Source: Hyphomicrobiales bacterium (GTDB lineage: Bacteria > Pseudomonadota > Alphaproteobacteria > Rhizobiales > Beijerinckiaceae). Taken from it: 35,714 nucleotides of DNA. The notes below the pieces were generated by a model that searched no databases, was not told the origin of the DNA, and saw only the letters and a program-made list of their open reading frames with translations. Positions 3,610 to 35,349 of the stretch are shown one piece after another. Within the stretch, counting starts at the first letter, position 1, and each line of letters starts with the position of its first letter. The stretch lies in the NCBI GenBank assembly GCA_031380285.1, contig JANNFV010000614.1:1-35714 (forward strand). Direction: 5' to 3'. The translations under genes and the position numbers were made by a program.

Positions 3610-3627
3610 GTGACAGACGAATGACAG
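3610..3627 (-). promoter_or_regulatory. Pho box (consensus-grade) upstream of the phytase-like gene
   Basis: The reverse complement reads CTGTCAT TCGT CTGTCAC. This matches the PhoB direct-repeat consensus exactly. It lies 50-67 nt upstream of the ATG at 3560. Confidence 0.6.
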
Positions 3628-3691
3628 ATGCGAGCATAATCGAAGCACGAACGCATCTGGTCGCACCTGCATTGCCGAGAACCCGGAACCG

Positions 3692-3717
3692 TTGTCTTCA
3701 AACTGTCACGTGACAGT
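3692..3717 (+). promoter_or_regulatory. Pho-box-like repeat overlapping a perfect 16-bp palindrome upstream of the metallophosphoesterase gene
   Basis: TTGTCTT CAAA CTGTCAC occupies 3692..3709, 42-59 nt before the ATG at 3751. Its second half-site forms the left arm of ACTGTCACGTGACAGT (3702..3717), a perfect palindrome. Confidence 0.5.
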
Positions 3718-3750
3718 GATTTTCAACCGGGAAGGATAGGGATCACAGAC

Positions 3751-5589: not shown

Positions 5590-5665
5590 GAAACGGTTTC
5601 CGGTGGACGCTGAAACGAAGCGGACGGTCGTCGATGCGACCGCCCTTTGTCGTTTGAGGAGCGGC

Positions 5666-11914: not shown

Positions 11915-13062
11915 GGCTGGTGGTGCCAATTGGCGACGCGGTAACCGATGCCGATCATCCGCCGAAAATTCCAGCCCCAGCGGCCCGGCCAGAGGACATC
12001 GGCGATCATGGCAATGGCGATCCAGCGGAACCATGTCGCAAAGGTATTGGAATGTCCTTGCGGCTCCTCGTAGCCTTTCACCCAGCCGTCCTGCCTTCGG
12101 ATACCGTCTCTGACATCGCAGAAGCCGCCATCGGCGTTCTGGAAGGTGAGCAGAGCGTCCAGCATCGTCGCCAGCCGGGCCTCTATTTCGGTGCGCCGGT
12201 GGTCCAGCATCCGCCAGCCGTGGATCAGCACATCGACGGCGTCGACATCGATGCAGGCGCTGTCGATGGCGGGTGGGAGGGTGAGGCAGTAATCGACCGC
12301 GCGGTCCTGCCCGATCAGCGTGCGACCCTCATGGTACCAGATGTGGAAGTTGTGCATGGATCCGGCAAAGGCGTGCAGCAGGCGGGTCTTGTCGGAGAGC
12401 TGGCCGACACCCCAGAAGCCGGTTGTCGGTTCGCGCAGCCGATCGTGCCAAGCGTAGAGGATATCGAGCGCGGCGTTGACTTTTGCTTGCATCGCGGCAT
12501 TGCCGTCCCGCCGCATCAGCAGCAGGAAGCTCGCCAGATTGACGATGTTGTTGCCCTCCTGCCAGGGATCCCGCAGGTCGCGGTCGGCGAGCCAGGCCTT
12601 GAGGGTCAGGGGATCGAGATAAGCCGCCGCAAAATCGAGCTGCGGCTGGCGGCCAGGCTCCAGCGCGTCGATGGCGCCAAGTGTGTAGTTGCTCACATGC
12701 CAATCGATGTAGCGCCAGGTCTCTTCGACATCCGGTTTTTTGAAAACATCTGCCGCCGCCATCCCCGGGATTCGGAAGCGGCCGTCGGGTAAGCGGCTGG
12801 CCTCCAGCCACGCCACGAGGTTGGCAGCATCTTCCTCGGGCCAGCCCTCGAGACCGCCCAGGAGGTCCATGCACATGACGCCGTTGTAGGTTCCAGGCAG
12901 CAGCATGCCTGGCCAGGTGCTGGCGCTGTGTACGGCACTGATCCGCATGACGCCGCGAGGCGAACCCTTGGCCTGCATCGCACCGAGCCAGTCCAATGTC
13001 CGGGCGCGTGACACGTCGATCCGTTCGGCAAGCCGGTCCATCGCTCCGATCTTCTTTAGCAT
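11911..13062 (-). CDS. hypothetical enzyme, probably an alpha/alpha-toroid fold (prenyltransferase/terpene-cyclase-like or glycoside-hydrolase/epimerase-like repeats)
   Basis: This is a 383-aa ORF with a GAAGGGA Shine-Dalgarno sequence. It starts 4 nt after the permease stop and is coupled by ATGA to the GH2 gene. Trp/Gly-rich repeats, including FQNADGGF, suggest the fold. I could not assign a family with confidence. Confidence 0.7.
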   Translation of the reverse strand: MLKKIGAMDRLAERIDVSRARTLDWLGAMQAKGSPRGVMRISAVHSASTWPGMLLPGTYNGVMCMDLLGGLEGWPEEDAANLVAWLEASRLPDGRFRIPGMAAADVFKKPDVEETWRYIDWHVSNYTLGAIDALEPGRQPQLDFAAAYLDPLTLKAWLADRDLRDPWQEGNNIVNLASFLLLMRRDGNAAMQAKVNAALDILYAWHDRLREPTTGFWGVGQLSDKTRLLHAFAGSMHNFHIWYHEGRTLIGQDRAVDYCLTLPPAIDSACIDVDAVDVLIHGWRMLDHRRTEIEARLATMLDALLTFQNADGGFCDVRDGIRRQDGWVKGYEEPQGHSNTFATWFRWIAIAMIADVLWPGRWGWNFRRMIGIGYRVANWHHQP

Positions 13063-21493: not shown

Positions 21494-21940
21494 TCAGGAC
21501 TTCGGTGGAACCTTCTCGATGAGGTCCAGCGCCTTCTTCATGTTGTCGCCGGCGCTCTTGTCGATGACGTCATAGGCGGCCTTCTCCGCCCTGATCCTGC
21601 CGAGCAACTCCTTCGCCTTGGCCACGCCGGTAGCGTCCTTCGGATTGGCGATCGCCTCCTCCAGTCGCTTGATCTCGCTGGTCAGGAACGCCGGCTGGCC
21701 GCCGATCACCTTGAAGGCGTCATTCGTCATGGAGCGGATCTTGAGCAGCATGCGGACATCGCCCTGCTCGATTTCGGCATTGGCGCGCTCCAGCGCCACC
21801 CGGGCCTCGACGCCCAAGGGACTGGTCATGTCCTTCGCAGCCGCGACCTCCTGGAATTTCGCGTTCTCCTTGGTGAAGTCGTGGGCGTATGCAGCCCCCA
21901 GGCAGAACACCATTCCGGATAACACCAAAGCCATGCGCAT
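21494..21940 (-). CDS. secreted, predicted all-helical protein of unknown function
   Basis: Track ORF 21494..21967. I trimmed the start to MRMALVLSGMVFCLGAAYA, which follows GGAGGAGGAA. The predicted mature N-terminus is HDFTKE. The sequence is rich in Ala, Lys and Glu. It lies 162 nt downstream of the kinase gene on the same strand. Confidence 0.75.
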   Translation of the reverse strand: MRMALVLSGMVFCLGAAYAHDFTKENAKFQEVAAAKDMTSPLGVEARVALERANAEIEQGDVRMLLKIRSMTNDAFKVIGGQPAFLTSEIKRLEEAIANPKDATGVAKAKELLGRIRAEKAAYDVIDKSAGDNMKKALDLIEKVPPKS

Positions 21941-22102
21941 GTCGGTTCCTCCTCCAGGAGGTCCCATCTGACCGCGCGCCGCTCCTCTTGCCTAGCGACA
22001 GAGAGCGGGCATCCCTATTCTGAAACGCATAGGCTTAAGGTGCCATCGCCCTGCGCCGGGCCAGCTCGCGCATTTGCAAAGCTCAGGGGCGCTGACGGTG
22101 CC

Positions 22103-23530
22103 TCAGCGGCGAGGCGCGGACCTGATCGCAGGCGCAGAAGCGTGTTCGCCTTGGGATACCCGGTCCAGGGATAAGCCAGCGGCTTTCACCGGCAGGCGAA
22201 GCAGCGCCGAAAGACCTCCCTCGATGCGGTTCGCCAGCACAACGTCGCCGCCATGCGCACGCGCAATGGATCGTGCGATGGTCAGGCCGAGGCCGACGCC
22301 GCCGGTCTCCTTGCTCCGCGATGTCTCGATCCGCAGGAAGGGGTCGAACACGCTCTCCAGCTTGTCGGAAGGCACGCCCGGGCCATCGTCCAGCACGACC
22401 AGCTCGGCGAAGGAGCCGTCACGCCGCGCCTCGACGCGCACGGAGCTTGCGTACTTCAATGCATTGCCGATCAGGTTGCAGATGGCCCGCTTCAGCGCGA
22501 GGTGCTGGCCCTCGACCGGCAGGCTCTCCGCGCCGCTGAACGCGATGTCCCGACCGGCGTCCCTGGCGTCGTCAACGCAGGTCTGCGCGATGGACGACAG
22601 ATCGAGCAGCCGTCGGGTCTCCATGCTCTCGCCGGATTTCAGGAACTCGAGCGTCGAGTCGATCATCGCCTCCATTTCGATGAGGTCCGCGTCGATCTGA
22701 TCCCGTATCGCCGTGTCGTTCAGGAGCTCGGACCGAAGGCGCACGCGCGTGATGGGCGTCCTGAGGTCGTGGGACACCGCTGCGAGCGCCTGGGTGCGTT
22801 CGCCCACCAGCTTCCGGATACGTTCGCGCATCCTGTTGAATGCCTGCGCGGCGCGGCGGACTTCGGACGGTCCCGATTCATCGAGAGGCTCCGGCTTGCC
22901 GTCGAGGCTGAAGCGCTCGGCCGCCAGCGCGAGGTCGCGCAGGGGCCTCGTCACCCATGCCAGCAACAGTGCCGCGATCACGATGATCACCACGGCGAGA
23001 CAGAACGTGAGCGCCAGCAATGCGGGGTCGAAGTGCGGCACGAGGCCCAGCCGCGGCGTCGAGAAGTTGACCCAGCTCTGATCCTCGAGGCGCATCGAGA
23101 CCAGCAGCATGTGGCGATAGGGCTCCGCCTCGCCCGACGTGATGGCGCCGTCGTCAGCGAAGCCGATCCGAAAGGCTTCGGCGGCAAGATCGGGGACCAA
23201 CTCCTTCAGACGCTCGGCGGTGGCCTTGGCGCGCTCGGTCAAGGGGGCATTGGCGAGCACGAGACTGACCTGGCTCCAATGAACCTCGAGGCTGCTGCTG
23301 GACAGCGCGTGGGCCGCCCGGTCCCGCTCGGAGGTGTTCGGGATGTTGGCGACCGCGCGCTTGATCGAGACGAGGCGCTCGGCAAGCGCCCGGTCCTGCG
23401 CCCTTTCGGCAACCGCGTTCACGCCGATACGATAGGCCCAGTAGCCCATGACATGCACCGCGATGAGCGCCGCCACCAGGATCGCGACGGCACGGGTGAC
23501 GACGGTGTCGGGAACCAGGCGCTTGAGCAT
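22103..23530 (-). CDS. sensor histidine kinase (two TM segments, periplasmic domain, HAMP, HisKA, HATPase)
   Basis: The H-box is AAVSHDLRTPIT, the N-box is NLIGNALKY, and the G-boxes are DDGPGV and GGVGLGLTIA. The start codon overlaps the regulator stop codon (TGATG at 23528..23532). Confidence 0.92.
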   Translation of the reverse strand: MLKRLVPDTVVTRAVAILVAALIAVHVMGYWAYRIGVNAVAERAQDRALAERLVSIKRAVANIPNTSERDRAAHALSSSSLEVHWSQVSLVLANAPLTERAKATAERLKELVPDLAAEAFRIGFADDGAITSGEAEPYRHMLLVSMRLEDQSWVNFSTPRLGLVPHFDPALLALTFCLAVVIIVIAALLLAWVTRPLRDLALAAERFSLDGKPEPLDESGPSEVRRAAQAFNRMRERIRKLVGERTQALAAVSHDLRTPITRVRLRSELLNDTAIRDQIDADLIEMEAMIDSTLEFLKSGESMETRRLLDLSSIAQTCVDDARDAGRDIAFSGAESLPVEGQHLALKRAICNLIGNALKYASSVRVEARRDGSFAELVVLDDGPGVPSDKLESVFDPFLRIETSRSKETGGVGLGLTIARSIARAHGGDVVLANRIEGGLSALLRLPVKAAGLSLDRVSQGEHASAPAIRSAPRR

Positions 23531-24318
23531 CAGCCCCCCGCCTGTCCACCGGTCGTGAGTCCGGTCGTGATCTTGGGCGTAAACGTGATCTTGGGCGTAA
23601 ACATGTACCCAGCCCCGCGGATGGTCTTGATCATGCGGCTGTCCTCCTCGCCATCCGATAACTTGCGGCGCAGCCGACTCACCTGCACGTCGATGGTCCT
23701 GTCGAAAGGATCGGCAGCGCGCGTCTTGGCAAACTCCATCAGCATGTCGCGGGACAGGACGCGATTGGCATGCTCGACGAAGGCCACCAGCATGTCGAAC
23801 TCGCCGGAGGACAGGTCCACGAGCACACCTTGCGGCGAGGTGAGCTCCCGTCGTCTGAGATCGAGCGCCCAGCCGTCGAAACCAACGACGTCCGACCCCG
23901 TCGGCTGCGAGCTCGCGGGCCGACCGCGCATGCGGCGCAAGACGGCACGAACCCGCGCCAGCAACTCCCGCGGGCTGAAAGGCTTGGTCACATAGTCATC
24001 TGCTCCGACGTCGAGACCGGCGATCCGGTCGCCCTCGTCGCCACGCGCGGTCAGCATGATGATCGGCACCTGGGTCGTCGCGCGCGCCTCGAGGCAAAGA
24101 TCGAGACCGCTCTCTCCCGGAAGCATCAGATCGAGGATAATCAGATCGACGGGTGTCCGAGCCATGATCTCGCGCATGACACGCCCGTCCGGCGCTCCCG
24201 ATACCCGATAGCCATGACGCTGCAGGAAGCGCGAAACCAGCAGCCGGATCTGCGGGTCGTCGTCAACAACCAGAATATGTCCGTGGTCGGCTGCAGGCGA
24301 TATGGCTTGGTCTGCCAT
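23530..24318 (-). CDS. OmpR-family response regulator with an unusual repeat-derived C-terminal tail
   Basis: Track ORF 23530..24648. I trimmed the start to MADQAISPAADHGHILVVDDD. The receiver domain carries DLIILDLMLPG and KPF. The winged helix carries IDVQVSRLRRKL and IKTIRGAGYMF, and is followed by TPKITFTPKITTGLTTGGQAGG. Confidence 0.92.
   Translation of the reverse strand: MADQAISPAADHGHILVVDDDPQIRLLVSRFLQRHGYRVSGAPDGRVMREIMARTPVDLIILDLMLPGESGLDLCLEARATTQVPIIMLTARGDEGDRIAGLDVGADDYVTKPFSPRELLARVRAVLRRMRGRPASSQPTGSDVVGFDGWALDLRRRELTSPQGVLVDLSSGEFDMLVAFVEHANRVLSRDMLMEFAKTRAADPFDRTIDVQVSRLRRKLSDGEEDSRMIKTIRGAGYMFTPKITFTPKITTGLTTGGQAGG
23549..23606. repeat. two adjacent tandem micro-duplications inside the 3' end of the regulator gene
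   Basis: CCGGTCGTGA occurs at 23549..23558 and again at 23561..23570. TCTTGGGCGTAAACGTGA (23571..23588) is followed directly by TCTTGGGCGTAAACATGT (23589..23606). Confidence 0.85.
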
Positions 24319-24458
24319 TTTGGCGAAGCTTTCAAATTTCAGCGTTGATCCCAGGAATACAGCGTCTCTGTGCAGAATGTATCGCAACAATTTGTAACAG
24401 ACGCGGCAGATGGTGGTTGGTATCTGGCAGGCCTGATGGATGAATCGGGAGTCTGCCC

Positions 24459-26174
24459 GTGCAGGTGAATGTCGATACGAAGCCAATGAATGCGACCCTT
24501 TCCCGTTTGGCCGTGGCGATGCTGGCCTTTCTGATGTTCGTCGGCATGGCATCGACACTGAGGGCGCATGAAGGGCACGATCACGGTGCGCCGCCGACGC
24601 CGGTCTCCACCACCATCGCGCCGCGCGTCGACGCCTCCTCCACGACATTCGAGCTGATCGCCGTCCTCCGCAACAACGCGCTCACGATTTTTGTCGACCG
24701 GTTCGTGACCAATGAACCGGTGACGGGCGCGCAGGTGGAAGTGGACACGCCGAAGGGCACGCTGACGGCCAGGGAAAACCCGGATGGAACCTACACGGTG
24801 CCAGCGCAGTGGGTGACCAACGGCGGGTCGTATGACCTGATCTTCACGGTGACTGCCGGAAATGACATCGATGTCCTGACCGGCACATTGAAGCTTCCCG
24901 CCGATGAAACGCCCGCCCAGGTCGGCATCAGGACATCCTGGCTCTTCGCCACCGCAGTTGCGAGCGGTGTGCGGGAGAGGATTGTCTCCTACGATCCGAC
25001 GCTGCCAGCCGTCGGCATCCTCGCGTTCCTCGCGGGTATGTTTGTGATGCGGCGGCGGCGCAAGGGCGACATCAATTCCCCTGCCGCAATCCTATGCGCC
25101 ATGGCTGTGTTGTTCGGCCCCAACGATGCAAAGGCCGACAGCGCGCCGCCGAAGGCTCCGGCCGTATCGCAAGCCGCCGTCGACCTCGCGCAGCGGTTTC
25201 CCGATGGCGCGGTGTTCGTGCCGAAGACCACGCAGCGCATCCTCGCGGTCCGCACCATCATGGCGAAGCCCGAGGAGCATCGCCGGTCAATCGCCTTGGC
25301 GGGTCGGGTCATCTCCGATCCGTCTGCGAGCGGTTCGGTGCAGACCTCCGTGATAGGCCGTTTGTCGCCGCCGCCAGGCGGATTCCCGCGGCTGGGACAG
25401 CGGGTGAAGACCGGCGACACGCTGGCGCTGGTGCAGCCCGCGCTTGGCGCCGCCGACATCACGAGCCAGCAGCAGCAGGCCCGCGAGCTCGACCAGCAGC
25501 TGGCGCTGGTGCAGCGGCGCCTGGAGCGGCTGCGCCCCATCGCCAACGTCGTCGCGCGCTCCCAGATCGAGGATGCCGAACTGGAGCTGCGCGGACTGGA
25601 GAACCGCAGGGTGAGCCTGGAACGCGCGCAGAAGCGGGAACCCGAGCGCCTGACCGCTCCGGTCGACGGCGTCATCGCCTCGGCTGCCGCGACCCCCGGG
25701 CAGGTCGTCGAGGTGAACGCCATGATCTTCCAGATCGTCAATCCAGACCGGCTCTGGATCGAGGCGTTGACGTTCGATGCGATCGCCGGGGCGCGATCCG
25801 CCACAGCTCGGCTCAACGATGGCCGTGTCCTGAAGCTGGATTACCGAGGCACAGGCTTCGCTGACCGCAATCAGGCGATCCCGATCCACTTCGCCCTGGA
25901 CGAAGGCGCGCGCGGCCTGCGCATGGGGCAGCTGATGACCGTGCTCGCGGAGACCGAGGAGTCGAAGACCGGTATCGCCCTTCCGCGCACCGCTCTCGTG
26001 CGCGCAGGCAACGGGCAGATGATCGTCTACGAGCATGCCAACACCGAGCGCTTCGTGCCGCGCGAGGTGCGCGTCGAGCCGCTCGACGGCGACCGTGTGC
26101 TGGTCATCTCCGGCCTCGATCCCGGCAAGCGGATCGTGACGCAGGGCGTCGAACTCCTCAACCAGATCCGCTGA
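24459..26174 (+). CDS. efflux RND periplasmic adaptor (MFP, CusB/CzcB-like) fused to an N-terminal His-motif periplasmic module
   Basis: The C-terminal ~340 aa read as a canonical adaptor (LTAPVDGVIASAAATPGQVV, coiled-coil QQQARELDQQLALVQRRLERL, IALPRTALVRAGNGQMIVYE, ISGLDPGKRIVTQGVELL). The N-terminal ~205 aa contain a signal peptide, HEGHDHG, a beta-rich domain and a TM segment. GTG 24459 follows GGGAG. ATG 24486 is an alternative start. Confidence 0.9.
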   Translation: MQVNVDTKPMNATLSRLAVAMLAFLMFVGMASTLRAHEGHDHGAPPTPVSTTIAPRVDASSTTFELIAVLRNNALTIFVDRFVTNEPVTGAQVEVDTPKGTLTARENPDGTYTVPAQWVTNGGSYDLIFTVTAGNDIDVLTGTLKLPADETPAQVGIRTSWLFATAVASGVRERIVSYDPTLPAVGILAFLAGMFVMRRRRKGDINSPAAILCAMAVLFGPNDAKADSAPPKAPAVSQAAVDLAQRFPDGAVFVPKTTQRILAVRTIMAKPEEHRRSIALAGRVISDPSASGSVQTSVIGRLSPPPGGFPRLGQRVKTGDTLALVQPALGAADITSQQQQARELDQQLALVQRRLERLRPIANVVARSQIEDAELELRGLENRRVSLERAQKREPERLTAPVDGVIASAAATPGQVVEVNAMIFQIVNPDRLWIEALTFDAIAGARSATARLNDGRVLKLDYRGTGFADRNQAIPIHFALDEGARGLRMGQLMTVLAETEESKTGIALPRTALVRAGNGQMIVYEHANTERFVPREVRVEPLDGDRVLVISGLDPGKRIVTQGVELLNQIR

Positions 26175-26180
26175 CGCCAG

Positions 26181-29100
26181 ATGTTCAACTTCCTCGTCAC
26201 GCAATCCCTCAAGAACAGGCTTCTCGTCCTGGCGCTTGCCGCCGTGTTGGTCATCTTCGGGGGCTTCACCATCACCAAACTCCCTGTCGATGTGTTCCCG
26301 GACCTCAACAAGCCGACCGTCACGATCATGACGGAATCGGAAGGTCTCGCCCCGCCCGAGGTCGAGCAACTCGTCACCTTTCCCATCGAGACGCAGATGA
26401 ACGGCCTGCCGGGCGTGACCCGCGTGCGCTCCGTTTCGGGCGTCGGCCTCTCCATCGTCTATGTCGAGTTCGACTGGGGCACCGACATCTATCGCAACCG
26501 GCAGCAGATCGCCGAGCGGCTGTCGCTGATCCGCGACCGGTTGCCTGCAACCGTCACGCCGCAGATGGGACCGATCAATTCGATCATGGGCCAGATCGTG
26601 CTGGCCGCCATGACCGCACCCGAGAACGTCTCGGCCATGGAGCTGCGCGAGATCGCCGATTTCGTGATCCGTCCGCGCCTGCTGACCATCCCGGGCGTGG
26701 CGCAGGTCATCCCCATCGGCGGCGAGGTCCGGCAATACCGCGTCGCGCCCAACCCCTCCGCCATGCGCGCGCTCGGCGTCACGCAGGCGCAGATCGAGAT
26801 GGCGCTTGCCCAGTTCGGCTCCAACACCGGCGGCGGCTTCACCGACCAGTACAGCCGCGAATTCCTGATCCGCAACATCGGCAAGACGATGCGGCTGGAG
26901 GATCTGGAGTCGATCACCGTCGCGAATGTCAACGCCCGCCCGGTCTATCTGCGCCAGGTGGCGGAGGTCGGCTTCGGCGCGCGGCTCAAGCGCGGCGATG
27001 CCGGCTACATGGGCCGATCCTCCGTCATCCTCTCCGTCGAGAAGCAGCCCGACATCGATACGATCGCGCTGACAAGGGCGGTCGAGGCCGCGCTCAAGGA
27101 CCTCAGCGCCACGCTGGGCCGCGGCATCAAGGTGGACAACATCCTGTTCCGGCAGGCCACCTTCATCGAGACATCGGTCAAGAACGTGCGGAACGTGCTG
27201 CTGGAGGCGGTGGCCGTCGTCGCCATCGTGCTCTTCGCATTCCTCTTGAACGTCCGCACCACCGCGATCTCGCTCACCGCCATCCCGGTCTCGATCCTCG
27301 CCACGGCGATCGTGTTCTGGTGGATGGGCTTGTCCATCAACACCATGACGCTGGGCGGCCTCGCCATCGCCATCGGCGAGCTGGTAGACGATGCCGTGGT
27401 CGATGTGGAGAACATCTTCCGGCGGCTCCGCGAGAACCGCGAAGCCGGCAATCCGCGCTCCGTGTTCGACGTGGTGGTGGGCGCCAGCCAGGAAGTCCGC
27501 TCCGGCATCGTCTACGCCACGATGATCATCATCCTCGTCTTCGTGCCACTCTTCGCGCTGACGGGGATCGAGGGGCGTCTGTTCGCGCCGCTCGGCAAGG
27601 CCTACATCATCTCGATCCTGATGAGCCTCGTGGTCTCGATCACGCTGACGCCGGTGATGGCCTATTACATGCTGCCGTCGCTCAAGCGGCTCGACGCGCA
27701 CGAGGGCTGGCTGGTGCGTCAACTCAAGGGCGGCAACCGTGCGTTGCTCGGCTGGTCCTTCCGCCATCCCAGGACGCTGATGGCGGGCGCGCTGGCGGGC
27801 GTGCTTGCGGCCGGTGCCGCCGCGACGCAGCTGCCGCGCGCCTTCCTGCCGCCGTTCAACGAGGGCAGCTTCACCATCAACCTGCTCTTCAATCCGGGCA
27901 TCTCGCTGGCCGAGAGCCACCGCGTCGGCCTCATCGCCGAACGGCTGATGATGCAGATCCCCGAAGTGCGCCAGGTCGGCCGCCGCACGGGCCGCGCCGA
28001 ACTCGACGAGCACGCCGAGGGCGTCCATGCATCCGAGATCGACGTCGATCTGAAGCCGTCCGCGCGAACGAAGGACGAGATCATCGCGGACATCCGCAAC
28101 AAGCTCGCCGTCCTGCCGGTGGCGACCAACATCGGCCAGCCGATCTCGCACCGGCTCGACCACATGCTGTCGGGCGTGCGCGCCCAGATCGCGCTCAAGA
28201 TCTACGGCGAGGACCTCGACACGCTGCGCCGCGTCGCGGCCGAGTTCCGCGACAGGATGGCCGCCGTGCCAGGCGTCGTCGACCTGCAAGTCGAGAAGCA
28301 GGTGCGCATCCCTCAGCTCGAGATCACCGTCGACTATGAGCGCGCCGCGCTGTTCGGCCTGCAGCCCGCCGCCATCACCGAGGCGCTGGAGCGGCTTTCC
28401 AACGGACGGGTCGTCTCAAGGCTCGTCGACGGTAACCGGCGCTTCGACGTGGTGATGCGCCTGCCGGACAGCTTGAGGACGACGCAGGCGCTGGCGGACA
28501 TGCTGATCGAGACGCCGCTGGGCTGGGTGCCGGTGCGCCAGCTCGCCGATGTGCAGGAGACGGACGGACCCAACCAGATCCTGCGCGAGAACGGCAAGCG
28601 CCGTATCGTGGTGCTGGCCAACAGCGACGGCAGAACGGACATGGCGAAGATCGTCGCCGATATCCGTGGGCTGGTGGCGCAGTCGCAGTTGCCGCAGGGC
28701 TATTTCACCAGCTTCGAGGGCACGTTCCAGGCGCAGGAGGAGGCGACGCGCACCATCGGCCTCCTTTCCATGCTCTCGCTCGCCATGGTCTTCGCCATCC
28801 TCTACAGCCGCTATCGTTCGACGCTTTTCGCTCTCATCATCATGGGCTCGGTGCCGCTGGCGCTCATCGGTTCGGTCGCGGCGCTCTGGTCGTCGGGACA
28901 ACCGCTGTCCGTCGCCTCCATGATCGGGTTCATCACGCTCACCGGCATCGCGGCGCGCAACGGCATCCTCAAGGTCAGCCACTACATCAACCTGGCGATC
29001 CACGAGGGCATGCCGTTCGGCCAAGACAGCGATTTCAGGGCGCTTGTCATGCGCGGCTCGCTCGAGCGGCTGACGCCGGTGCTGATGACGGCGCTCTCGG

Positions 29101-29351
29101 CCGGCGTCGCGCTCATCCCGCTGATGATCGACGCCGGCGCGCCCGGCAAGGAGATCCTGCATCCCGTCGCCATCACCATCTTCGGCGGTCTGGTCAGCGC
29201 CACGCTGCTCGACACGTTCCTGACGCCGGTCCTGTTCCTGCGCTACGGCCGCAAGCCGCTGCAGCGCCTGATCGACGGGGTGAAAGCCGAGCAGGCGGCG
29301 GCTGCCGCCAAGACCCCCGGACAAACCCTGAAACCCATCGAAGCCTTCTGA
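26181..29351 (+). CDS. heavy-metal efflux RND transporter (CusA/CzcA family)
   Basis: It is 1056 aa. The N-terminus is MFNFLVTQSLKNRLLVLALAAVLVIFGG...PVDVFPDLNKPTVTIMTE. The TM4 motif is AIGELVDDAVVDVEN. The start lies 6 nt after the adaptor stop codon. Confidence 0.95.
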   Translation: MFNFLVTQSLKNRLLVLALAAVLVIFGGFTITKLPVDVFPDLNKPTVTIMTESEGLAPPEVEQLVTFPIETQMNGLPGVTRVRSVSGVGLSIVYVEFDWGTDIYRNRQQIAERLSLIRDRLPATVTPQMGPINSIMGQIVLAAMTAPENVSAMELREIADFVIRPRLLTIPGVAQVIPIGGEVRQYRVAPNPSAMRALGVTQAQIEMALAQFGSNTGGGFTDQYSREFLIRNIGKTMRLEDLESITVANVNARPVYLRQVAEVGFGARLKRGDAGYMGRSSVILSVEKQPDIDTIALTRAVEAALKDLSATLGRGIKVDNILFRQATFIETSVKNVRNVLLEAVAVVAIVLFAFLLNVRTTAISLTAIPVSILATAIVFWWMGLSINTMTLGGLAIAIGELVDDAVVDVENIFRRLRENREAGNPRSVFDVVVGASQEVRSGIVYATMIIILVFVPLFALTGIEGRLFAPLGKAYIISILMSLVVSITLTPVMAYYMLPSLKRLDAHEGWLVRQLKGGNRALLGWSFRHPRTLMAGALAGVLAAGAAATQLPRAFLPPFNEGSFTINLLFNPGISLAESHRVGLIAERLMMQIPEVRQVGRRTGRAELDEHAEGVHASEIDVDLKPSARTKDEIIADIRNKLAVLPVATNIGQPISHRLDHMLSGVRAQIALKIYGEDLDTLRRVAAEFRDRMAAVPGVVDLQVEKQVRIPQLEITVDYERAALFGLQPAAITEALERLSNGRVVSRLVDGNRRFDVVMRLPDSLRTTQALADMLIETPLGWVPVRQLADVQETDGPNQILRENGKRRIVVLANSDGRTDMAKIVADIRGLVAQSQLPQGYFTSFEGTFQAQEEATRTIGLLSMLSLAMVFAILYSRYRSTLFALIIMGSVPLALIGSVAALWSSGQPLSVASMIGFITLTGIAARNGILKVSHYINLAIHEGMPFGQDSDFRALVMRGSLERLTPVLMTALSAGVALIPLMIDAGAPGKEILHPVAITIFGGLVSATLLDTFLTPVLFLRYGRKPLQRLIDGVKAEQAAAAAKTPGQTLKPIEAF

Positions 29352-29375
29352 CACGCCCCCGAGAGGACCCCAGTC

Positions 29376-29741
29376 ATGCGCGCCGTATCCCTTGCTTTCG
29401 CCCTGTCGCTGCTTGCCGCTCCGTCATTCGCCCATGAACCCCGCAAGGGTCCGAATGGCGGCGATCTCGTCGACGCGGGCAGCTACCACATCGAAGTCAT
29501 CGGCCGTGGGACCATTATCGAAGTGCTTGTCAGCGACGCTACGGACAGGCCGCTCCCCGCCACAGGATTCAAGGCGGTCGCCATCGTTGTGGTTGATGGC
29601 AAGACGCAGCGCATCGTGCTGGCGCCGACGGCCGATGGCCAGAGGCTCATCGGTACGGCTCCTGCCGCACTGACCTCGATCAAGGGTGCCGTTCAGCTGA
29701 CTGACAAGGAAGGAAAGACCGGCACAGGGCGCGTGAACTGA
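29376..29741 (+). CDS. small periplasmic protein, paralogue of the adaptor N-terminal module (function unknown; putative metal-binding)
   Basis: The signal peptide is MRAVSLAFALSLLAAPSFA and the mature N-terminus is HEPRKGPNGG. LVDAGSYHIEVIGRGTIIEVLVSD aligns with RVDASSTTFELIAVLRNNALTIFVDR of the adaptor. A GAGAGGA Shine-Dalgarno sequence is present. Confidence 0.8.
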   Translation: MRAVSLAFALSLLAAPSFAHEPRKGPNGGDLVDAGSYHIEVIGRGTIIEVLVSDATDRPLPATGFKAVAIVVVDGKTQRIVLAPTADGQRLIGTAPAALTSIKGAVQLTDKEGKTGTGRVN

Positions 29742-29805
29742 TCAACGGAACTGAACACCGCTGCAACGCGTTATCTTTCCAAAAGCGAACCCAAGGACCA
29801 TCGCC

Positions 29806-30480
29806 ATGAAAACAATCAGCAAAATCATTCTCGCCATGGCATGGCTCGGCGTCGCACCCGCTTTGGCCCAGCATCAGGGGCATCAGATGCCGATGCCGGG
29901 TGGCAGCGGCCAGATGATGCCTGGAATGAAGCCCCAATCCGCGATGCCGATGAATGAGGCCGCAAGGGCCTTCGCTGAAGCCAATGCCCGCATGCACAAG
30001 GACATGACGATCCAGTTCTCCGGCAATGCGGACGTCGATTTCGCGCGCAGCATGATCCCGCATCACCAGGGCGCGATCGACATGTCCGAGATCGTCCTGA
30101 AGCATGGGAGCGATCCGTCCGTCCGCAAGCTCGCCAATGCGGTCATTGCGGCGCAAAAGATGGAGATCGCGCAGATGCAGGCCTGGCTGGGGAAAAACGC
30201 CTCGCTGCCTGCCGGGCCGGACGCCGCCGCAGCAGCCAAGGCCTTCACCGATGTCAATGCCCGGATGCACGCGACCATGATGATGACCTCCTCTGGCAAG
30301 GCGGACATCGATTTCATGAAGGGCATGATCCCGCACCACGAGGGTGCAGTGGACATGGCCAAGGTGCTGCTGCAGTTCGGCAAGGATCCGGAGTTGCGGA
30401 AACTGGCCGACGCCGTTATCCGCACCCAGAACGAGGAGATCACGATGATGCGCGATTGGCTCAGGAAGAACAGCGGCTGA
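29806..30480 (+). CDS. DUF305 family periplasmic protein with a Met/His-rich N-terminal region
   Basis: A signal peptide is followed by QHQGHQMPMPGGSGQMMPGMKPQSAMPM. Two internal repeats follow, each with the DUF305 hallmark (DVDFARSMIPHHQGAIDM and DIDFMKGMIPHHEGAVDM). Confidence 0.88.
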   Translation: MKTISKIILAMAWLGVAPALAQHQGHQMPMPGGSGQMMPGMKPQSAMPMNEAARAFAEANARMHKDMTIQFSGNADVDFARSMIPHHQGAIDMSEIVLKHGSDPSVRKLANAVIAAQKMEIAQMQAWLGKNASLPAGPDAAAAAKAFTDVNARMHATMMMTSSGKADIDFMKGMIPHHEGAVDMAKVLLQFGKDPELRKLADAVIRTQNEEITMMRDWLRKNSG

Positions 30481-30493
30481 GGATCATCGTGCA

Positions 30494-31876
30494 ATGACAA
30501 TTGGGATGTCGATCGGGCTCCTTGAGCCGCTGGGCGACCGGACCTACCGTCGGCTCTTCGCCGCGCAGGTCCTGTCGCTGCTTGGAACAGGCCTGACCAC
30601 GGTCGCGTTGGCGCTGCTCGCCTACCGGCTGGCGGGGCCCGAAGCCGGAGCGGTGCTCGGCACAGCGCTCGCGATCAAGATGATTGCCTATGTCGCGATC
30701 GCGCCGGTGGTGGGCGCGCATGCCGCTCGCTTTCCGCGGCGCGGCTTCCTGGTCGCCCTTGACCTTGTGCGCGCCGCGATCGTGCTTGCGTTGCCGTTCG
30801 TGACGCAAGTGTGGCAGATCTACGTGCTGATCTTCCTGCTGCAGTCCTGCTCGGCGGCCTTCACGCCGACGTTCCAGGCGACGATCCCCGATATCCTGCC
30901 GGACGAGAAGCGCTACACCCAGGCGCTTTCGCTCTCCCGGCTCGCCTACGACACCGAGGCGGTGGCGAGCCCGATGCTCGCGGCGGCGCTTCTGGCTGTC
31001 ATCCCGTTCCATTGGCTGTTCCTCGGCAACGTGGCGGGCTTCACTGCGTCGGCTTTTCTCGTCCTGTCGGTCGCCCTTCCCGCCGCCAGACCCGCCGTGA
31101 TGGCGCAAGGCGCTTGGGCGCGCACGACGCGCGGCATCTGGATCTACCTCGCGACGCCACGCCTCAGGGGCCTGCTCGCCCTCAACCTGGCGGTCGCGGC
31201 AGCGGGCGCCTTCGTCATCGTCAATACGGTCGTTCTCGTGCGCGGCCCCCTTGGCGGCGACGAAGGCTCGGTCGCGCTGCTGATGGCGGCCTATGGCGCA
31301 GGTTCCATGGCGGCGGCGCTGCTGCTGCCGCGGCTTCTCGACCGGATCGCGGAGCGGCGGCTGATGCTGTCGGGCGCAGCGCTCCTGCTCGCGGGCCTGG
31401 CGATCGTGGCGAGCGGACCGGGCTGGTGGCTGGCGGTCGTGCTCTGGCTGGGCATGGGGTTCGGCTCGTCGCTCGTGCAAACCCCTGGTGGAAGGCTTTT
31501 GCGCCGGTCGTCCCATGCCGAGGATCGCCCGGCGCTGTTTGCCGCCCAGTTCTCGCTGTCGCACGCCTGCTGGCTCGTGACGTATCCATTGGCGGGCTGG
31601 GCGGGTGCGCGCTTCGGGCTGCCTGCGACGGCGCTTATCCTCGTTGTGATCGGCGCGGCCGGCATGGTGCTGGCGGTTTCCGCATGGCCCGCTGATGACC
31701 CGGACGTCGTCGCCCATCATCATGATCGGATCGTGCACAGACATGGCGCTGGCGACGAAGCGCACCATGCAACCGCCATTGCCGCGCCAGACGGATCGCA
31801 CGCGCATGGGCCGCTGGAACATGCCCATGCCTTCGTCATCGACGATCACCATCCGCACTGGCCTGCACGCATCTGA
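30494..31876 (+). CDS. MFS transporter, NreB/NrsD-like, with a His-rich C-terminal tail
   Basis: Twelve hydrophobic segments are visible. The N-terminus LGDRTYRRLFAAQVLSLLGTGLTTVALALLAY reads as the EntS/NreB-type MFS family. The last 61 residues contain 14 His. Confidence 0.9.
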   Translation: MTIGMSIGLLEPLGDRTYRRLFAAQVLSLLGTGLTTVALALLAYRLAGPEAGAVLGTALAIKMIAYVAIAPVVGAHAARFPRRGFLVALDLVRAAIVLALPFVTQVWQIYVLIFLLQSCSAAFTPTFQATIPDILPDEKRYTQALSLSRLAYDTEAVASPMLAAALLAVIPFHWLFLGNVAGFTASAFLVLSVALPAARPAVMAQGAWARTTRGIWIYLATPRLRGLLALNLAVAAAGAFVIVNTVVLVRGPLGGDEGSVALLMAAYGAGSMAAALLLPRLLDRIAERRLMLSGAALLLAGLAIVASGPGWWLAVVLWLGMGFGSSLVQTPGGRLLRRSSHAEDRPALFAAQFSLSHACWLVTYPLAGWAGARFGLPATALILVVIGAAGMVLAVSAWPADDPDVVAHHHDRIVHRHGAGDEAHHATAIAAPDGSHAHGPLEHAHAFVIDDHHPHWPARI

Positions 31877-31936
31877 TCCCGCGTGGACAATATTTTCTGT
31901 CGGCATCGTGCGACCCCAAGAGCACGACGTGTCTCG

Positions 31937-32291: not shown

Positions 32292-32740
32292 CTATCCGGC
32301 TGTTATCGCCGCCACGATCTGTGTTTTGCCGAGAATGTTCATGATTCTGGTCAGACTGTAGGCAAGCACGTGCAGCGCCATCTCAGCCGCCACATTCGGC
32401 AAACGCTTGATCAGGAAGTGGGTGGCGCCCATCCTGGCCTTGATCGTACCGAACGGATGTTCGACCGTTTTACGGCGGATGCGCATGGCATAGGGGTTCT
32501 GGTCGAGACGGCGCTGAACGTCCTCAACCAGTTGCTCGTACTCCCAACGCGTGATGCGGCGTTCCTTGGCCGTCGTGCACTGGCTCTTGATCTGGCACGC
32601 GAGGCAGGCAGCCGTCGACCAATAGCGCCGAAGAGCCATGCCGTGCTCAATCCCGGTGTAGTGGTAGGATAACAATGCACCAGCGGGACACTGATACATG
32701 TCTGTGTCAGATCGATAAACGAAGTCCTCTTTTACGAACC
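32292..32740 (-). pseudogene. IS1182/IS5-type DDE transposase, C-terminal fragment only
   Basis: The sequence (GRFVKEDFVYRSDTD)MYQCPAGALLSYHY...CLACQIKSQCTTAKERRITRWEYE...RRKTVEHPFGTIKARMG...FLIRGL-like...LAYSLTRIMNIL matches the conserved C-terminal third of IS1182-family transposases. The N-terminal two-thirds are absent. Confidence 0.75.
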
Positions 32741-33443
32741 GACCTTCGCGCTTCGAGCCCTGTTTCGGCTAGCCGTTCGGTGTATTTTATGGACACGTAT
32801 TGCGATCCCGTGTCGGAGTGGTGAACCAGACCGCCGCGATGGACGGGCCGCCTGTCATGCAGTACCTGTTCCAGCGCATCGAGCATGAAGCCCGCATGCG
32901 CCGTCCGGCTGGCCCGCCAGCCGACAATCCGGCGGGCGTAGGTATCGATGACGAAGGCCACGTAGACGAAGCCTGACCAGGTGCTGACATAGGTGAAGTC
33001 GGACACCCACAGCACACTGGGCCTTGGCGCATGGAACTGCCGGTTGAGATGGAGCCAGACCTTCCTGGCACCGTAGACCTCGTAGTTCGCGGCTAAGACG
33101 CGGGCGAGCTCTGGCTGCAAGGCAAAATCCTGCCTCGTCCGCAGCGAAAGCTTGGCAGGGTCAGCCCGTTTTGCAACGTGGTTGCGATAGGTGGATTGGG
33201 CGATCGGTAGGACCTTGCAGATCGTCTCGCCCCGTGGACTCCACAATGATCATCAATGAAGCTGATCATCTCCTCAACGGCCGGTCGAGCTCCGCCTGCG
33301 CGAGGCATGCTCGCCTTCGTGATCTAGCACCAACCGCACCGCTCGGGCGCGCACTTCGGGCGAGAACTTGTTCGTCGTCTTGCTCATGATGGCTCCATCC
33401 TATTTGGAAGTTGGAGCCTGCAGCAAACCCGGGGCGGTTCACA
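32736..33443 (-). mobile_element. IS3-family element remnant (degenerate orfA/orfB, one terminal inverted repeat retained)
   Basis: The orfA start MSKTTNKFSPEVRARAVRLVLDHEGEHASR (ATG at 33387) is joined by an internal deletion to AQAELDRPLRR. orfB reads MISFIDDH..., then a frameshift, then ICKVLPIAQSTY...VYGARKVW, then a deletion, then LWVSDFTYV...HHSDTGSQYVSIKYTERLAE, and is then truncated. The terminal repeat TGTGAACCGCCCCGGGTTTGCTGC ends at 33443. Confidence 0.8.
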
Positions 33444-33444
33444 A

Positions 33445-34383
33445 GTCTATCCCGGAGAGCATGATCCCCTGCTCGATCGTGCTGTGTTCGAGGCCGTTCA
33501 GGACGAGCTGTCAAGCCAGCGCAACAGCAGGCACAGGCTCCCATCACGGATGACGGGATTGCTTACCGGGCGCATTTTTGATTCCAGAGGCAACCGCATG
33601 ACGCCGACGCATGCCAACAAGAATGGGGTGCGTTACCGCTATTACGTTACCCGCGCCCTTGCAGAGGGGCGCAAGCATGAAGCGGGCCATCCTGCCCGCG
33701 TGCCCGCACCTGAGATCGAGCAGGCCGTGCTTACGGCGTTGCACAGGCATTTTGAAGGCCAATCCAAGCTAGGAGACAGGACCGCAGATTATCTATCAGC
33801 TTCGCAGAATACCGATCGTCTACAGAAGGCCCAAATTGCGGTGTCGAACTCAGGTTCAATCGAGTGCTCCGCGCCATCCGTGGCCGACCCTGCGTCAGAA
33901 GCCAGCCACCTGATTGAAGGGACCATCGACCGTGTTGATGTTTACGCCAATACCGTTGTCCTAAAACTCCAACGATCCGAGGCGATCAGCTGCGACGAAA
34001 ACGCAGCGGAAATCCTGACCGTTCCTTGGGCACGAACTAACACCAGACCGCGGCGTGAGGTTGTCGAGGCATTGCCCGTGATCAGCAATGCACCGAACAA
34101 CTCCCAGCGTCGCCTGGTGATTGCCATCGCGACCGCCCGCAGCTGGTTCCATGAGATTGCAAGCGGCGCGATCGCAAGCGTCGAAGCTATCTCCATCCGT
34201 GAAGGCATGCATCCTAAGAGCATCCGTTCCACGCTTTCGCTGGCCTTCCTCGCGCCGGATCTTGTGGAACACCTGCTGGACAGCCGGTCGCACAAACCTC
34301 CAACTCAAACCGAGATCGTCAGGAATCTGCCTGCGCTTTGGGCTGAGCAACGTCGTAAACTGCTGAACGACGCACAATCCTGA
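33445..34383 (+). pseudogene. large serine recombinase, C-terminal part only (5' end removed at the IS3 boundary)
   Basis: The reading frame is open right up to the IS3 end: VYPGEHDPLLDRAVFEAVQDELSSQRN...LLTGRIFDSRGNRMTPTHANKNGVRYRYYVTRAL. This is the recombinase-domain to zinc-ribbon-like region of large serine recombinases. The catalytic resolvase domain is missing. Confidence 0.78.
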
Positions 34384-34676: not shown

Positions 34677-34751
34677 TGGTGGGCGCTACAGGGATCGAAC
34701 CTGTGACCCCTACCATGTCAAGGTAGTGCTCTACCGCTGAGCTAAGCGCCC
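34677..34751 (-). tRNA. tRNA-Val(GAC): tRNA-Val (anticodon GAC), CCA encoded
   Basis: The reverse complement is GGGCGCTTAGCTCAGCGGTAGAGCACTACCTTGACATGGTAGGGGTCACAGGTTCGATCCCTGTAGCGCCCACCA. It folds into a cloverleaf with acceptor GGGCGCT/AGCGCCC, D stem GCTC/GAGC, anticodon stem CTACC/GGTAG with loop TTGACAT, and T stem ACAGG/CCTGT. Confidence 0.95.
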
Positions 34752-34983: not shown

Positions 34984-35349
34984 TCAGGCGGCCTGCTGGA
35001 TCATCCGGTTGACCTCGCTGACGAGGTCTTTCAGATGGAAGGGCTTGGACAGCACCTTGGCATCCTTGGGGGCCTTGGAATCCGGATTGAGCGCCACAGC
35101 CGCAAAGCCTGTGATGAACATCACCTTGATATCCGGGTCGAGTTCCGTGGCACGACGGGCCAGTTCGATCCCGTCCATCTCGGGCATCACGATATCCGTC
35201 AGCAGCAGTTCGAACGGTTCTTCCCGCAGGCGGTTATAGGCCGACAAGCCATTGTCGAAGGACGTGACGTCGTATCCCGCGTTCTGCAGCGCTTTCACCA
35301 GAAACCGGCGCATATCGTTGTCGTCTTCAGCCAGCAGGATCCGGGGCAT
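34984..35349 (-). CDS. cpdR: single-domain response regulator CpdR
   Basis: It is a 121-aa receiver-only protein. The sequence is MPRILLAEDDNDMRRFLVKALQNAGYDV...LLLTDIVMPEMDGIELARRATELDPDIKVMFITGFAAVALNPDSKAP...KPFHLKDLV. This closely matches my recollection of rhizobial CpdR1. Confidence 0.85.
   Translation of the reverse strand: MPRILLAEDDNDMRRFLVKALQNAGYDVTSFDNGLSAYNRLREEPFELLLTDIVMPEMDGIELARRATELDPDIKVMFITGFAAVALNPDSKAPKDAKVLSKPFHLKDLVSEVNRMIQQAA

Follow-up and report, generated by a model that had tools for sequence, protein, structure and literature searches.

A conserved putative metal-efflux locus of an alphaproteobacterium with likeness to CopMRS/CopBAC and a predicted cep–adaptor fusion

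Introduction

To our knowledge, pumps of the heavy-metal efflux (HME) group of the resistance–nodulation–division (RND) family are understood mechanistically only for CusA, in which a methionine relay carries Cu(I)/Ag(I), and for ZneA/CzcA, in which carboxylate sites serve zinc. The subject of this paper is a putative metal-efflux locus at positions 21494–31876 of a 35.7 kb stretch of DNA from a Hyphomicrobiales soil bacterium of the family Beijerinckiaceae (contig JANNFV010000614.1; the whole stretch of 35,714 nucleotides is called the window, and all coordinates are window positions unless a related locus is named). The locus encodes a response regulator and a histidine kinase and, divergently, an RND adaptor with an N-terminal extension, a predicted HME-RND pump, a 121-residue secreted protein (p121), a CopM-family DUF305 protein and an exporter of the major facilitator superfamily (MFS).

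Several described systems share parts of this arrangement. In Synechocystis PCC 6803, the pSYSX genes slr6039–slr6044 encode CopMRS/CopBAC, in which copM lies upstream of the regulator genes, the operator is the direct repeat TTCAT-N4-5-TTCAT and the operon contains no gene for an outer-membrane factor (OMF). CopM is a tight binder of Cu(I) that makes the cells resistant to copper; it is able by itself to reduce the copper content of the cell, and part of it is found outside the cells (PMC4335983). The nieIC-cep-nieBA operon of Cupriavidus neocaledonicus STM 6070 (PMC7060636), which also occurs on plasmids of Cupriavidus sp. EM10 and Comamonadaceae, begins with the genes for the His-rich NieI and the TolC-family NieC, has a separate cep gene and has no adjacent two-component system. 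Its pump, NieA, was classed as 'HME5 / class 6' in a study based on genomics only, in which nickel was predicted as the substrate from H-X4-H and H-X3-H motifs (PMC7060636). The nrsRS/nrsBACD locus of Synechocystis contains a three-gene RND system, nrsBAC (PMC4284471), together with the MFS gene nrsD, which has its own InrS-controlled promoter and is induced by both nickel and copper. In Escherichia coli CusCFBA, the periplasmic chaperone CusF and the metal-binding N-terminus of the adaptor feed the cleft of an HME pump, and in Cupriavidus metallidurans CzcCBA (HME1) an OMF gene and CzcI accompany the adaptor CzcB and the pump CzcA.

In this study, the locus was analyzed using profile and structure searches, a pump phylogeny and a survey of neighbouring genes in 80 relatives at the species level, for which at most 10 kb of flank was taken on either side (individual relatives are cited by their survey labels, L001 onwards). 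A preliminary description of the window had considered the locus to be nrs-like in its logic and to be a composite nickel/cobalt and/or copper resistance module.

Relationship to the described systems

Judged by gene content and homology, the closest characterized system is CopMRS/CopBAC and not nrsRS/nrsBACD. Both have CopM, a two-component system of the OmpR family, an adaptor whose mature N-terminus is rich in His, a pump of the HME5 lineage (40% identity, in sister clades with a bootstrap value of 100/100), a small secreted protein of the p121 family encoded downstream and a direct-repeat operator (a candidate operator in the present locus), and neither operon contains an OMF gene. The locus is best regarded as a CopMRS/CopBAC-type module for the detoxification of metal in the envelope, to which an exporter of the NreB type has been added, a reading that is considered probable though well short of certain. 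It departs from CopMRS/CopBAC in five ways: the pump belongs to a clade with His motifs (HAEGVH and HRLDH) that CopA lacks, the adaptor carries a fused cep that CopB lacks, the regulators are not orthologous (35% identity of the regulator to CopR, and 28.5% for the kinase over the catalytic part only) and the operator differs, copM is downstream, and an NreB-like MFS gene is appended.

The nie operons resemble the locus in their pump (59–60% identity), in its fourth transmembrane segment (TM4) and both His motifs, and in the p121-family gene that follows the pump. Here, however, cep is fused, and the locus lacks NieC and NieI but has a two-component system, CopM and an MFS in addition.

The nrs-like logic of the preliminary description stands in part. 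As in nrsRS/nrsBACD, a two-component system is located beside an adaptor and pump of the HME5 lineage and a His-tailed MFS. The regulators, however, score below the equivalog cut-offs of the nrsRS type (148.7 bits against 250 for RppA and 74.3 against 400 for RppB). Furthermore, in the one rppAB-linked cyanobacterial locus examined, the pump gene is followed by a gene of the TolC family, and the adaptor owes its length to a longer hairpin and a C-terminal tail instead of cep; and whereas nrsD has a promoter of its own, the MFS gene here lies 13 nt after copM without a repressor gene.

The core gene order was found again in about 70 species-level genomes, and the arrangement is thus not due to chance. 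In about 70 related loci, the fused cep–adaptor, the RND pump and p121 form a conserved unit. On these comparisons the locus is considered to be a real conserved module, in which the family ties of two accessory proteins are newly annotated.

The pump and its predicted metal site

The pump is assigned to the HME-RND group and is closer to metal pumps than to multidrug pumps. It scores 775.2 bits with TIGR00914, the model of the CusA/CzcA family (cut-off 701), and matches ACR_tran with an E value of 4e-246, while a ranking against the PDB places CusA (469 bits) and ZneA (385) above the multidrug pumps of the hydrophobe/amphiphile efflux group (276 or less). A tree was computed by neighbour joining from 983 ungapped columns, with AcrB as the outgroup and without the NrsA sequence. 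In this tree the pump falls in a clade, termed Nie-like here, with a bootstrap value of 100/100, and the sister relation of this clade to the cyanobacterial HME5 pumps also reaches 100/100. The ranking and the tree bear out the earlier view of a CusA/CzcA-type pump as opposed to a hydrophobe/amphiphile or nodulation exporter.

Among cultured Alphaproteobacteria, the closest plasmid-borne relatives (Peteryoungia, Tabrizicola, Methylobacterium and Azospirillum) show 71–77% identity, followed by the betaproteobacterial nie-type pumps (59–60%; Cupriavidus EM10 60%) and by Synechocystis CopA (40%) and the cyanobacterial rppAB-linked pump (40–41% for the two). The identity is 33% to CzcA, 31% to CusA and 25% to AcrB. 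Members of the clade are spread over Hyphomicrobiales, Rhodobacterales, Rhodospirillales and Burkholderiales and are often encoded on plasmids. In public records, all of these pumps bear the generic name 'efflux RND transporter permease subunit', although the window pump passes the TIGR00914 cut-off, and p121 and cep are entered as 'hypothetical'.

The CusA ligands are not retained. The periplasmic Met triad M573/M623/M672 aligns to N/A/H, and M403, M486, M410, M501 and M1009 align to L, I, D, A and L, respectively; the loss of the triad and of the transmembrane Met pairs, the two features of HME4 pumps, is shared by ten orthologues. At the corresponding sites, HAEGVH aligns to CusA D617–E622, adjoining M623, and is kept in 75 of 82 orthologues, and HRLDH, whose H661 occupies the position of M672, is kept in 78 of the 82. 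Both are the His motifs described for NieA (PMC7060636), and the pump thus carries the motifs of the Nie-like clade. The cyanobacterial HME5 pumps of the sister clade do not share them.

TM4 of the pump reads AIGELVDDAVVDVEN and so lacks the signature DFG-X3-DGA-X3-VEN of HME1 and HME2 pumps such as CzcA, CnrA and NccA (PMC3637150). This bears on the reading of the pump as a Czc-like exporter of Zn/Cd/Co, which would agree with its membership of the CusA/CzcA family, with the p121 domain at the N-terminus of CzcB (see below) and with the capacity of Zn to bind His/Asp/Glu sites. Given TM4, the low identity to CzcA, the separate clade and the lack of recurrent ZntA-, CzcD- or CadA-type neighbours in the related loci, it is considered very improbable.

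The adaptor fusion and p121

The adaptor model TIGR01730 (103.7 bits; cut-off 94.9) covers only residues ∼276–570 of the 571-residue adaptor. According to sequence alignments, the extension in front of it is the product of the betaproteobacterial 'cep' (conserved exported protein) gene, fused in frame through a transmembrane (TM) hairpin, with both domains predicted to be periplasmic and cep tethered by the hairpin to the inner membrane. It is 46% identical to a Comamonadaceae cep (E value 6.6e-21, blastp) and matches that of Cupriavidus EM10 with an E value of 1.1e-13. The genes on the Cupriavidus sp. EM10 and Comamonadaceae plasmids encode, in order, a His-rich small protein, a TolC-family OMF, a hypothetical protein of 186–222 residues, an adaptor (370–390 residues), the pump and a hypothetical protein of 125–127 residues, which is the published nieIC-cep-nieBA layout; the last gene, after the pump, belongs to the p121 family. 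Since the stand-alone cep proteins end in a TM segment and RRRR and the stand-alone adaptors start with a signal anchor, the TM-RRRRKG-TM hairpin is taken as the scar of the fusion. Every one of the 70 related loci with enough upstream sequence has the fusion, as do the Rhodospirillales relatives, and the AxA/H cleavage pattern of its signal peptide is conserved in homologues.

The cep domain consists of an N-terminal HEGHDHG motif followed by an immunoglobulin (Ig)-like β-sandwich. In an AlphaFold2 model of the 215-residue N-terminal segment, the mean predicted local distance difference test (pLDDT) score is 84.7 and exceeds 94 in the β core; the best Foldseek matches are FetP/P19/FtrA and Helicobacter pylori CrdA, which bind copper in the periplasm, with E values of 2e-3 to 1e-2. 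In an alignment of 108 homologues, H37, H40, H42, E65, D80 and N85 are each kept in 93% or more.

The secreted protein p121, whose mature N-terminus is HEPRKGPNGG, is likewise modelled as an Ig-like β-sandwich (pLDDT 88). It has no sequence match in Pfam, NCBIfam or the PDB, and Pfam was also blank across 40 diverse members of its family, which comprises 545 clusters at 50% identity. Foldseek gave weak matches to CrdA, P19, Tp34 and CopC/PcoC, all of which are periplasmic copper proteins. A family-wide hidden Markov model (HMM) matches the 159-residue slr6044 product, Synechocystis CopC of copBAC, with an E value of 3.9e-9 and residues 72–167 of CzcB with an E value of 1.7e-7; CzcB HHEVKKGPNGGALFSRDGYDVEI parallels p121 HEPRKGPNGGDLVDAGSYHIEVI. 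By these profile matches, both Synechocystis CopC and the N-terminal domain of CzcB belong to the p121 family. The first mature residue is His in all 122 members in which the alignment reaches this position, and H38, E40 and D54 of p121 are near-invariant. In 71 of 74 related loci its gene follows that of the pump at a distance of no more than 700 nt. The protein is proposed as a candidate periplasmic metallochaperone. The preliminary description had left three components of the locus without a characterized role; two of these, the adaptor extension and p121, can now be placed by homology, in the cep and the CopC/CzcB N-terminal families.

For the fusion there is a precedent in CzcCBA, where the N-terminal extension of CzcB contains a p121-like domain with an HE-x-K-x-GPNGG start, so that an HME adaptor again carries an Ig-like accessory domain; CzcCBA differs in that its pump has the DFG/DGA/VEN form of TM4 and is 33% identical, in its OMF gene and CzcI, and in that the adaptor of the present locus is joined to cep and not to p121. 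In CzcB itself (L093, pMOL30, 21874–23436), the p121-family domain starts with HHEVKKGPNGG straight after a His-rich stretch. CusCFBA resembles the locus in the proposed way of working, with a chaperone and a metal-binding adaptor N-terminus, and in its divergent two-component system; however, CusA is only 31% identical with the Met triad replaced by N/A/H here, cusC is absent here, and neither p121 nor cep has a Pfam match to CusF, nor does any of the 40 family members, the predicted fold being Ig-like.

A homology between p121 and cep themselves is possible but distant. A first hhalign comparison (E value 4e-5) that suggested paralogy owed its score mostly to the signal peptides, and with the mature domains only P was 0.024; broad profiles gave P = 1.6e-3 and a probability of 16%. 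Paralogy was thus not adopted.

Several further observations concern these proteins. Betaproteobacterial cep and adaptor (L084 6203–7889 and L085 6045–7882) both start with APGAHGP(N/G)GEHLDAPG after their signal peptides, a peptide that resembles HEPRKGPNGGDLVDAG of p121; the second copy is degenerate in the fused adaptor of the window (FGPNDAKADSAPP), and Defluviicoccus, Magnetospirillum and M. oryzae retain an HG(D/E)EDHG-like motif at this site. On plasmid II of Magnetospirillum sp. XM-1 (L091, 10159–10881), a p121-family domain (residues 28–112, E value 5e-13) is fused to a C-terminal c-type cytochrome (CASCH), and in Peteryoungia (L086, 13108–13683) a separate cytochrome c gene follows p121. 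A FixH-family protein beside the Defluviicoccus locus matched neither the p121 nor the cep HMM.

The outer-membrane channel

The absence of a CusC/CzcC-type OMF gene from the window, as described previously, was upheld, as a matter of gene content and not of statistics: Pfam gave no OEP/TolC match for 30 flanking open reading frames (ORFs) of at least ∼110 residues, which are nearly all of the long ones, and phmmer searches with E. coli CusC and TolC matched none of the ORFs of at least 90 residues. Neither an operon-encoded OMF (NieC) nor the His-rich NieI is present in the window. An OMF gene is also absent from 79 of the 80 Hyphomicrobiales-type loci, the sole TolC-like ORF being 4.4 kb away on the other strand in L044.

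A TolC-family gene is located directly upstream of the adaptor in the betaproteobacterial, Magnetospirillum and Defluviicoccus (Rhodospirillales) operons. The gene was thus lost in the Hyphomicrobiales/Rhodobacterales branch, where its position is taken either by the two-component system or by a NieI-like gene that is accompanied by an ATPase and a repressor of the CsoR type. The adaptor core is 38% identical to the OMF-linked betaproteobacterial adaptors, without an indel in the α-hairpin. Because the hairpin is retained and collinear although the OMF gene is lost, the channel is probably encoded elsewhere and supplied in trans, as TolC is for AcrAB. RND pumps that lack an OMF of their own, such as AcrAB, usually borrow TolC.

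The missing gene might instead mean that there is no channel and that the adaptor and pump move metal within the envelope only, for example out of the membrane or cytoplasm to p121 and CopM as periplasmic sinks. The operon does encode two or three periplasmic binding proteins, and CopM of Synechocystis acts on cellular copper alone and is partly extracellular, as noted above. However, the orthologous operons with an adjacent TolC-family gene, the full-length hairpin and the habit of borrowing TolC all argue for a channel, and the transmembrane Met relay by which CusA takes up cytoplasmic metal is missing from the pump. A channel-free route is thus considered quite improbable.

Directly upstream of the adaptor, 16 related loci (L031 7796–8227, L049 7780–8226 and 14 others; also L082 7190–7639) encode a secreted protein of ∼140 residues without a Pfam match, which is rich in His at its N-terminus, contains the Cys-rich motif GGCxGxCCG and has RKPPRxxA at its C-terminus. 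It resembles betaproteobacterial NieI in position and C-terminus. In 13 of these 16 loci no two-component gene is seen next to it, and it is often found together with a repressor of the CsoR type and a divergently encoded Cu(I) ATPase.

CopM and the MFS exporter

The fourth gene of the operon encodes a CopM-family protein, with 222.8 bits for NF049983 (cut-off 90), two DUF305 repeats, a match to PF03713, a signal peptide and, as described previously, a Met/His-rich region, which forms an N-terminal tract. It is 33–37% identical to Synechocystis CopM. Of the 80 loci, 16 encode a DUF305 protein beside the core, and in three Hyphomicrobium-type loci a short DUF305 gene lies between adaptor and pump (L014 9451–9876, L016 9451–9876 and L019 2155–2580).

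The earlier assignment of the MFS exporter as NreB-like also agrees with the present data. Of the last 61 residues of the protein, 14 are His. It shares 61.6% identity with the product of a single matching gene on pSymA of Sinorhizobium meliloti 1021, and one UniRef homologue is named 'Putative NreB'. S. meliloti nreB is SMa1641 on pSymA (PMC6266702); the locus tag of the matching gene could not be confirmed, as the record is unannotated. Deletion of nreB raises the sensitivity of S. meliloti to Ni and Cu (PMC6266702). His-tailed MFS genes are linked to the pump clade in only two of the 80 loci, L001 and L034. In the latter (3627–5600), the MFS gene follows a cupredoxin gene after p121; with its product only 59% identical to the window MFS and its position different, the operon may have acquired the MFS on more than one occasion.

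The metal substrate

The neighbours of the 80 loci were clustered, and the cluster representatives were scanned against Pfam. Multicopper oxidases occur in 13 of the loci, cupredoxins in six, DUF305 proteins in 16, CsoR/RcnR-type repressors in six and P1B ATPases with YHS/HMBD (representative scanned) in 16; the CPC motif (CPCALGLAT) is present in 14 of the 16 ATPases, with MxxSS too in 13, and both are Cu(I) signatures. A copper-dedicated protein is adjacent in 29 of the 80 loci, and the number rises to 38 with the Cu(I) ATPases and the repressors of the CsoR type. The Tabrizicola and Peteryoungia plasmids carry the operon within copper islands: in Tabrizicola its surroundings comprise a multicopper oxidase, CueR, a DUF305 protein and two ATPases, and in Peteryoungia it is located between a multicopper oxidase and a cytochrome c with DUF305.

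Copper appears from this context to be the likeliest and best-supported core substrate, and as the pump ligands are His and carboxylate groups, not Met, it is probably handled as Cu(II). The MFS would add export of Ni/Co and possibly of Cu. The earlier opinion that the metal specificity could not be read from the sequence applies only in part, given the His cluster in place of the Met triad and the dominance of copper genes around the relatives; the composite Ni/Co and/or Cu module proposed at the same time is judged to be plausible.

The following route can be envisaged for such a module. p121 and cep would capture periplasmic metal through their N-terminal His motif and the conserved Glu/Asp on the first β strands, with a second His also used in p121, and would pass it to the HAEGVH/HRLDH cluster in the periplasmic cleft of the pump, from which it would be expelled through the outer-membrane channel encoded elsewhere. 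CopM would buffer periplasmic copper, and the MFS would move cytoplasmic Ni/Co, possibly Cu, into the periplasm. In its specific form, this would be a histidine-based Cu(II) relay, parallel to the methionine-based Cu(I) system of CusCFBA, in which two Ig-like proteins, the soluble p121 and the membrane-tethered cep of the adaptor, each with a free N-terminal His, deliver the ion from a histidine-brace-like Cu(II) site to the four-His cluster of the pump, the adjacent multicopper oxidases, cupredoxins or fused cytochrome c of the relatives setting its oxidation state for export. The relay is put forward tentatively, as possible but doubtful.

Several points weigh against the main reading of the locus, with copper as the likeliest core substrate. 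Nickel was predicted for NieA from the H-X4-H/H-X3-H motifs (PMC7060636), and His clusters also bind Ni, Co and Zn. In the window and in L001, an NreB-type nickel exporter is joined directly to the operon, and the betaproteobacterial nie loci have as their neighbours chromate genes and others, but none for copper. Foldseek matched the folds only weakly (E values of 2e-3 to 2e-2 and TM scores of 0.3–0.6), and the Ig-like fold is very common. The homology of p121 and cep is unproven. A limited literature search found no experimentally tested member of the Nie-like clade, for which PMC7060636 is the sole basis, and no description of the role of Synechocystis CopC (slr6044).

Nickel is a serious alternative, in view of both the published prediction and the attached MFS. 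The core pump would then be mainly a Ni(II)/Co(II) exporter in a two-stage route with the MFS, out of the cytoplasm into the periplasm and then outside, and CopM would be an unrelated passenger. An N-terminal His-Glu resembles N-terminal nickel-binding motifs. HAEGVH and HRLDH fit the two motif spacings noted for NieA (PMC7060636), the MFS is ∼62% identical to the S. meliloti NreB-type gene product and has a His-rich tail, and nrsBACD joins an HME5 pump with such an MFS, NrsBAC being an exporter of nickel. Against these stand the linkage of the MFS in two of the 80 loci compared with the 29 (or 38) that have copper genes, an Rfam scan that found no NiCo or other metal riboswitch in the window (only an IS3 frameshift element and a tRNA), and the window ORFs scanned, among which no RcnR-type repressor or CnrX-like sensor turned up. 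In addition, the fusion of cytochrome c to p121 and the adjacent multicopper oxidases are sensible only for a redox-active metal. Finally, since deletion of S. meliloti nreB raises copper sensitivity and nrsD is induced by copper, the MFS is not evidence for nickel alone. A mainly nickel-exporting pump is thus regarded as rather unlikely, and copper is retained as the preferred substrate.

Regulation

The regulators are related to OmpR/EnvZ and not to the heavy-metal two-component models (CusRS/CzcRS/CopRS). The best NCBIfam match of the regulator is OmpR (253 bits), compared with 141.8 bits for TIGR01387 (cut-off 279.2), and that of the kinase is EnvZ (220 bits, which is below its cut-off), compared with 137.8 bits for TIGR01386 (cut-off 292.55). 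Within the periplasmic domain of the kinase, H74, H84, H140 and D150 recur in 80% or more of the 29 linked kinases, and it is through this His-bearing domain that the pair would sense periplasmic metal.

A 16-nt direct repeat, GCAACAATTTGTAACA, is located 60 nt upstream of the adaptor start and is the only strongly conserved block in an intergenic region that has otherwise diverged among the window and L001–L003. Boxes of the consensus TGAAACA-N4-GT(T/A)ACA were found within ∼100 nt upstream of the adaptor start in 20 of the 30 loci with an adjacent two-component system, whatever the orientation of that system, compared with two of the 39 loci without one, both of which have truncated flanks; the background rate is 1% of 450-nt windows. 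From this co-occurrence the box is likely to be the operator of the regulator, which would activate the operon by binding at GCAACA-N4-GTAACA, the binding itself being inferred. Scans for σ70 promoter and terminator consensus sequences gave matches at or below chance and were uninformative.

Locus layout and flanks

The features of the locus and its right flank are listed in Table 1. The genes, the spacings of 6, 24, 64 and 13 nt between the five plus-strand genes and the 14-His tail of the MFS, all given in the preliminary description, were confirmed from ORF coordinates, profile searches and a His count. The regulator and kinase genes overlap by 1 nt, and 140 nt (24319–24458) separate the divergent regulator and adaptor genes. 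The GTG start of the adaptor at 24459 is backed by a GGGAG Shine–Dalgarno sequence (24447–24451), and ATG occupies the aligned position in L002 and L003.

Table 1. Features of the efflux locus and of its right flank, in window coordinates
Feature	Coordinates	Strand	Basis
p157, 157-residue secreted ORF	21494–21967	-	ORF call; no family match
Histidine kinase	22103–23530	-	HAMP/HisKA/HATPase; two TM segments and periplasmic domain
OmpR/PhoB-family response regulator	23530–24318	-	Response_reg and Trans_reg_C
Direct-repeat box GCAACA-ATTT-GTAACA, candidate operator	24384–24399	+	Conserved block in divergent promoter region
Adaptor fusion gene (571 residues)	24459–26174	+	RND_mfp profile
Adaptor signal peptide, predicted cleavage LRA/HEGHDHG	24459–24566	+	Read from sequence
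cep domain of predicted adaptor fusion	24567–24905	+	blastp to betaproteobacterial cep
TM hairpin (TM, RRRRKG loop, TM), cep to adaptor	24999–25112	+	AlphaFold2 helices
RND adaptor core with α-hairpin	25284–26174	+	TIGR01730, HlyD_3, HlyD_D23
Predicted HME-RND permease	26181–29351	+	TIGR00914
Pump TM4 motif AIGELVDDAVVDVEN	27369–27413	+	Read from sequence/alignment
HAEGVH motif, pump residues 611–616	28011–28028	+	Periplasmic cleft, CusA alignment
HRLDH motif, pump residues 657–661	28149–28163	+	CusA alignment
p121, 121-residue secreted ORF	29376–29741	+	p121/CopC (slr6044) family HMM
CopM-family DUF305 protein	29806–30480	+	NF049983, PF03713
NreB/NrsD-like MFS exporter	30494–31876	+	MFS_1/MFS_3
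DDE transposase fragment	32292–32699	-	Right flank
IS3-type rve fragment	32707–33246	-	Right flank
ALIL frameshift pseudoknot of IS3 element	33196–33311	-	Rfam scan
Recombinase zinc-ribbon fragment	33484–34383	+	Right flank
tRNA-Val(GAC)	34677–34751	-	Right flank

The closest relative, the Hyphomicrobiales metagenome-assembled genome L001, is 90.7% identical to the window at the DNA level over 13.7 kb, in keeping with the alphaproteobacterial host proposed earlier, and its collinearity with the window ends at 31908. No near-identical annotated counterpart of the locus was found in plasmid records. The left flank contains housekeeping genes (ABC transporters, a GH2 hydrolase, LacI, a pyridoxal-phosphate enzyme and LysR), and its block of solute-binding protein, pyridoxal-phosphate enzyme, LysR and p157 is syntenic with the locus in L001 and L004. 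The possibility of an island confined to 21.5–32 kb was rejected on account of this synteny, as only the right edge is mobile-element-like; this edge looks like a decayed mobile-element or island boundary.

The secreted protein p157 is probably helical, and its mature N-terminus is predicted to begin with His (AYA/HDF), as in cep and p121. It had no match in Pfam, NCBIfam or PDB sequence searches and adjoins the efflux locus only in L001 and L004, and its part in the efflux system is uncertain. Two other ORFs of the window lie apart from the locus: a stand-alone receiver-domain protein of 121 residues near the right end (34984–35349, minus strand) and a 383-residue ORF without a Pfam match between the GH2 hydrolase and ABC permease genes (11911–13062, minus strand).

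Conclusions

In the present work, the third gene of copBAC, the cep of the nie operons and the N-terminal domain of CzcB are brought together as a single conserved set of accessory parts of metal-efflux systems, and a candidate operator and a testable substrate hypothesis, copper over nickel, are supplied. With these assignments, metal-resistance islands of bacteria from soil and plants could be better annotated. If the Cu(II) relay is true, it would furthermore provide a function for an unannotated family of more than 500 clusters, for the N-terminal domain of CzcB and for the third gene of copBAC.

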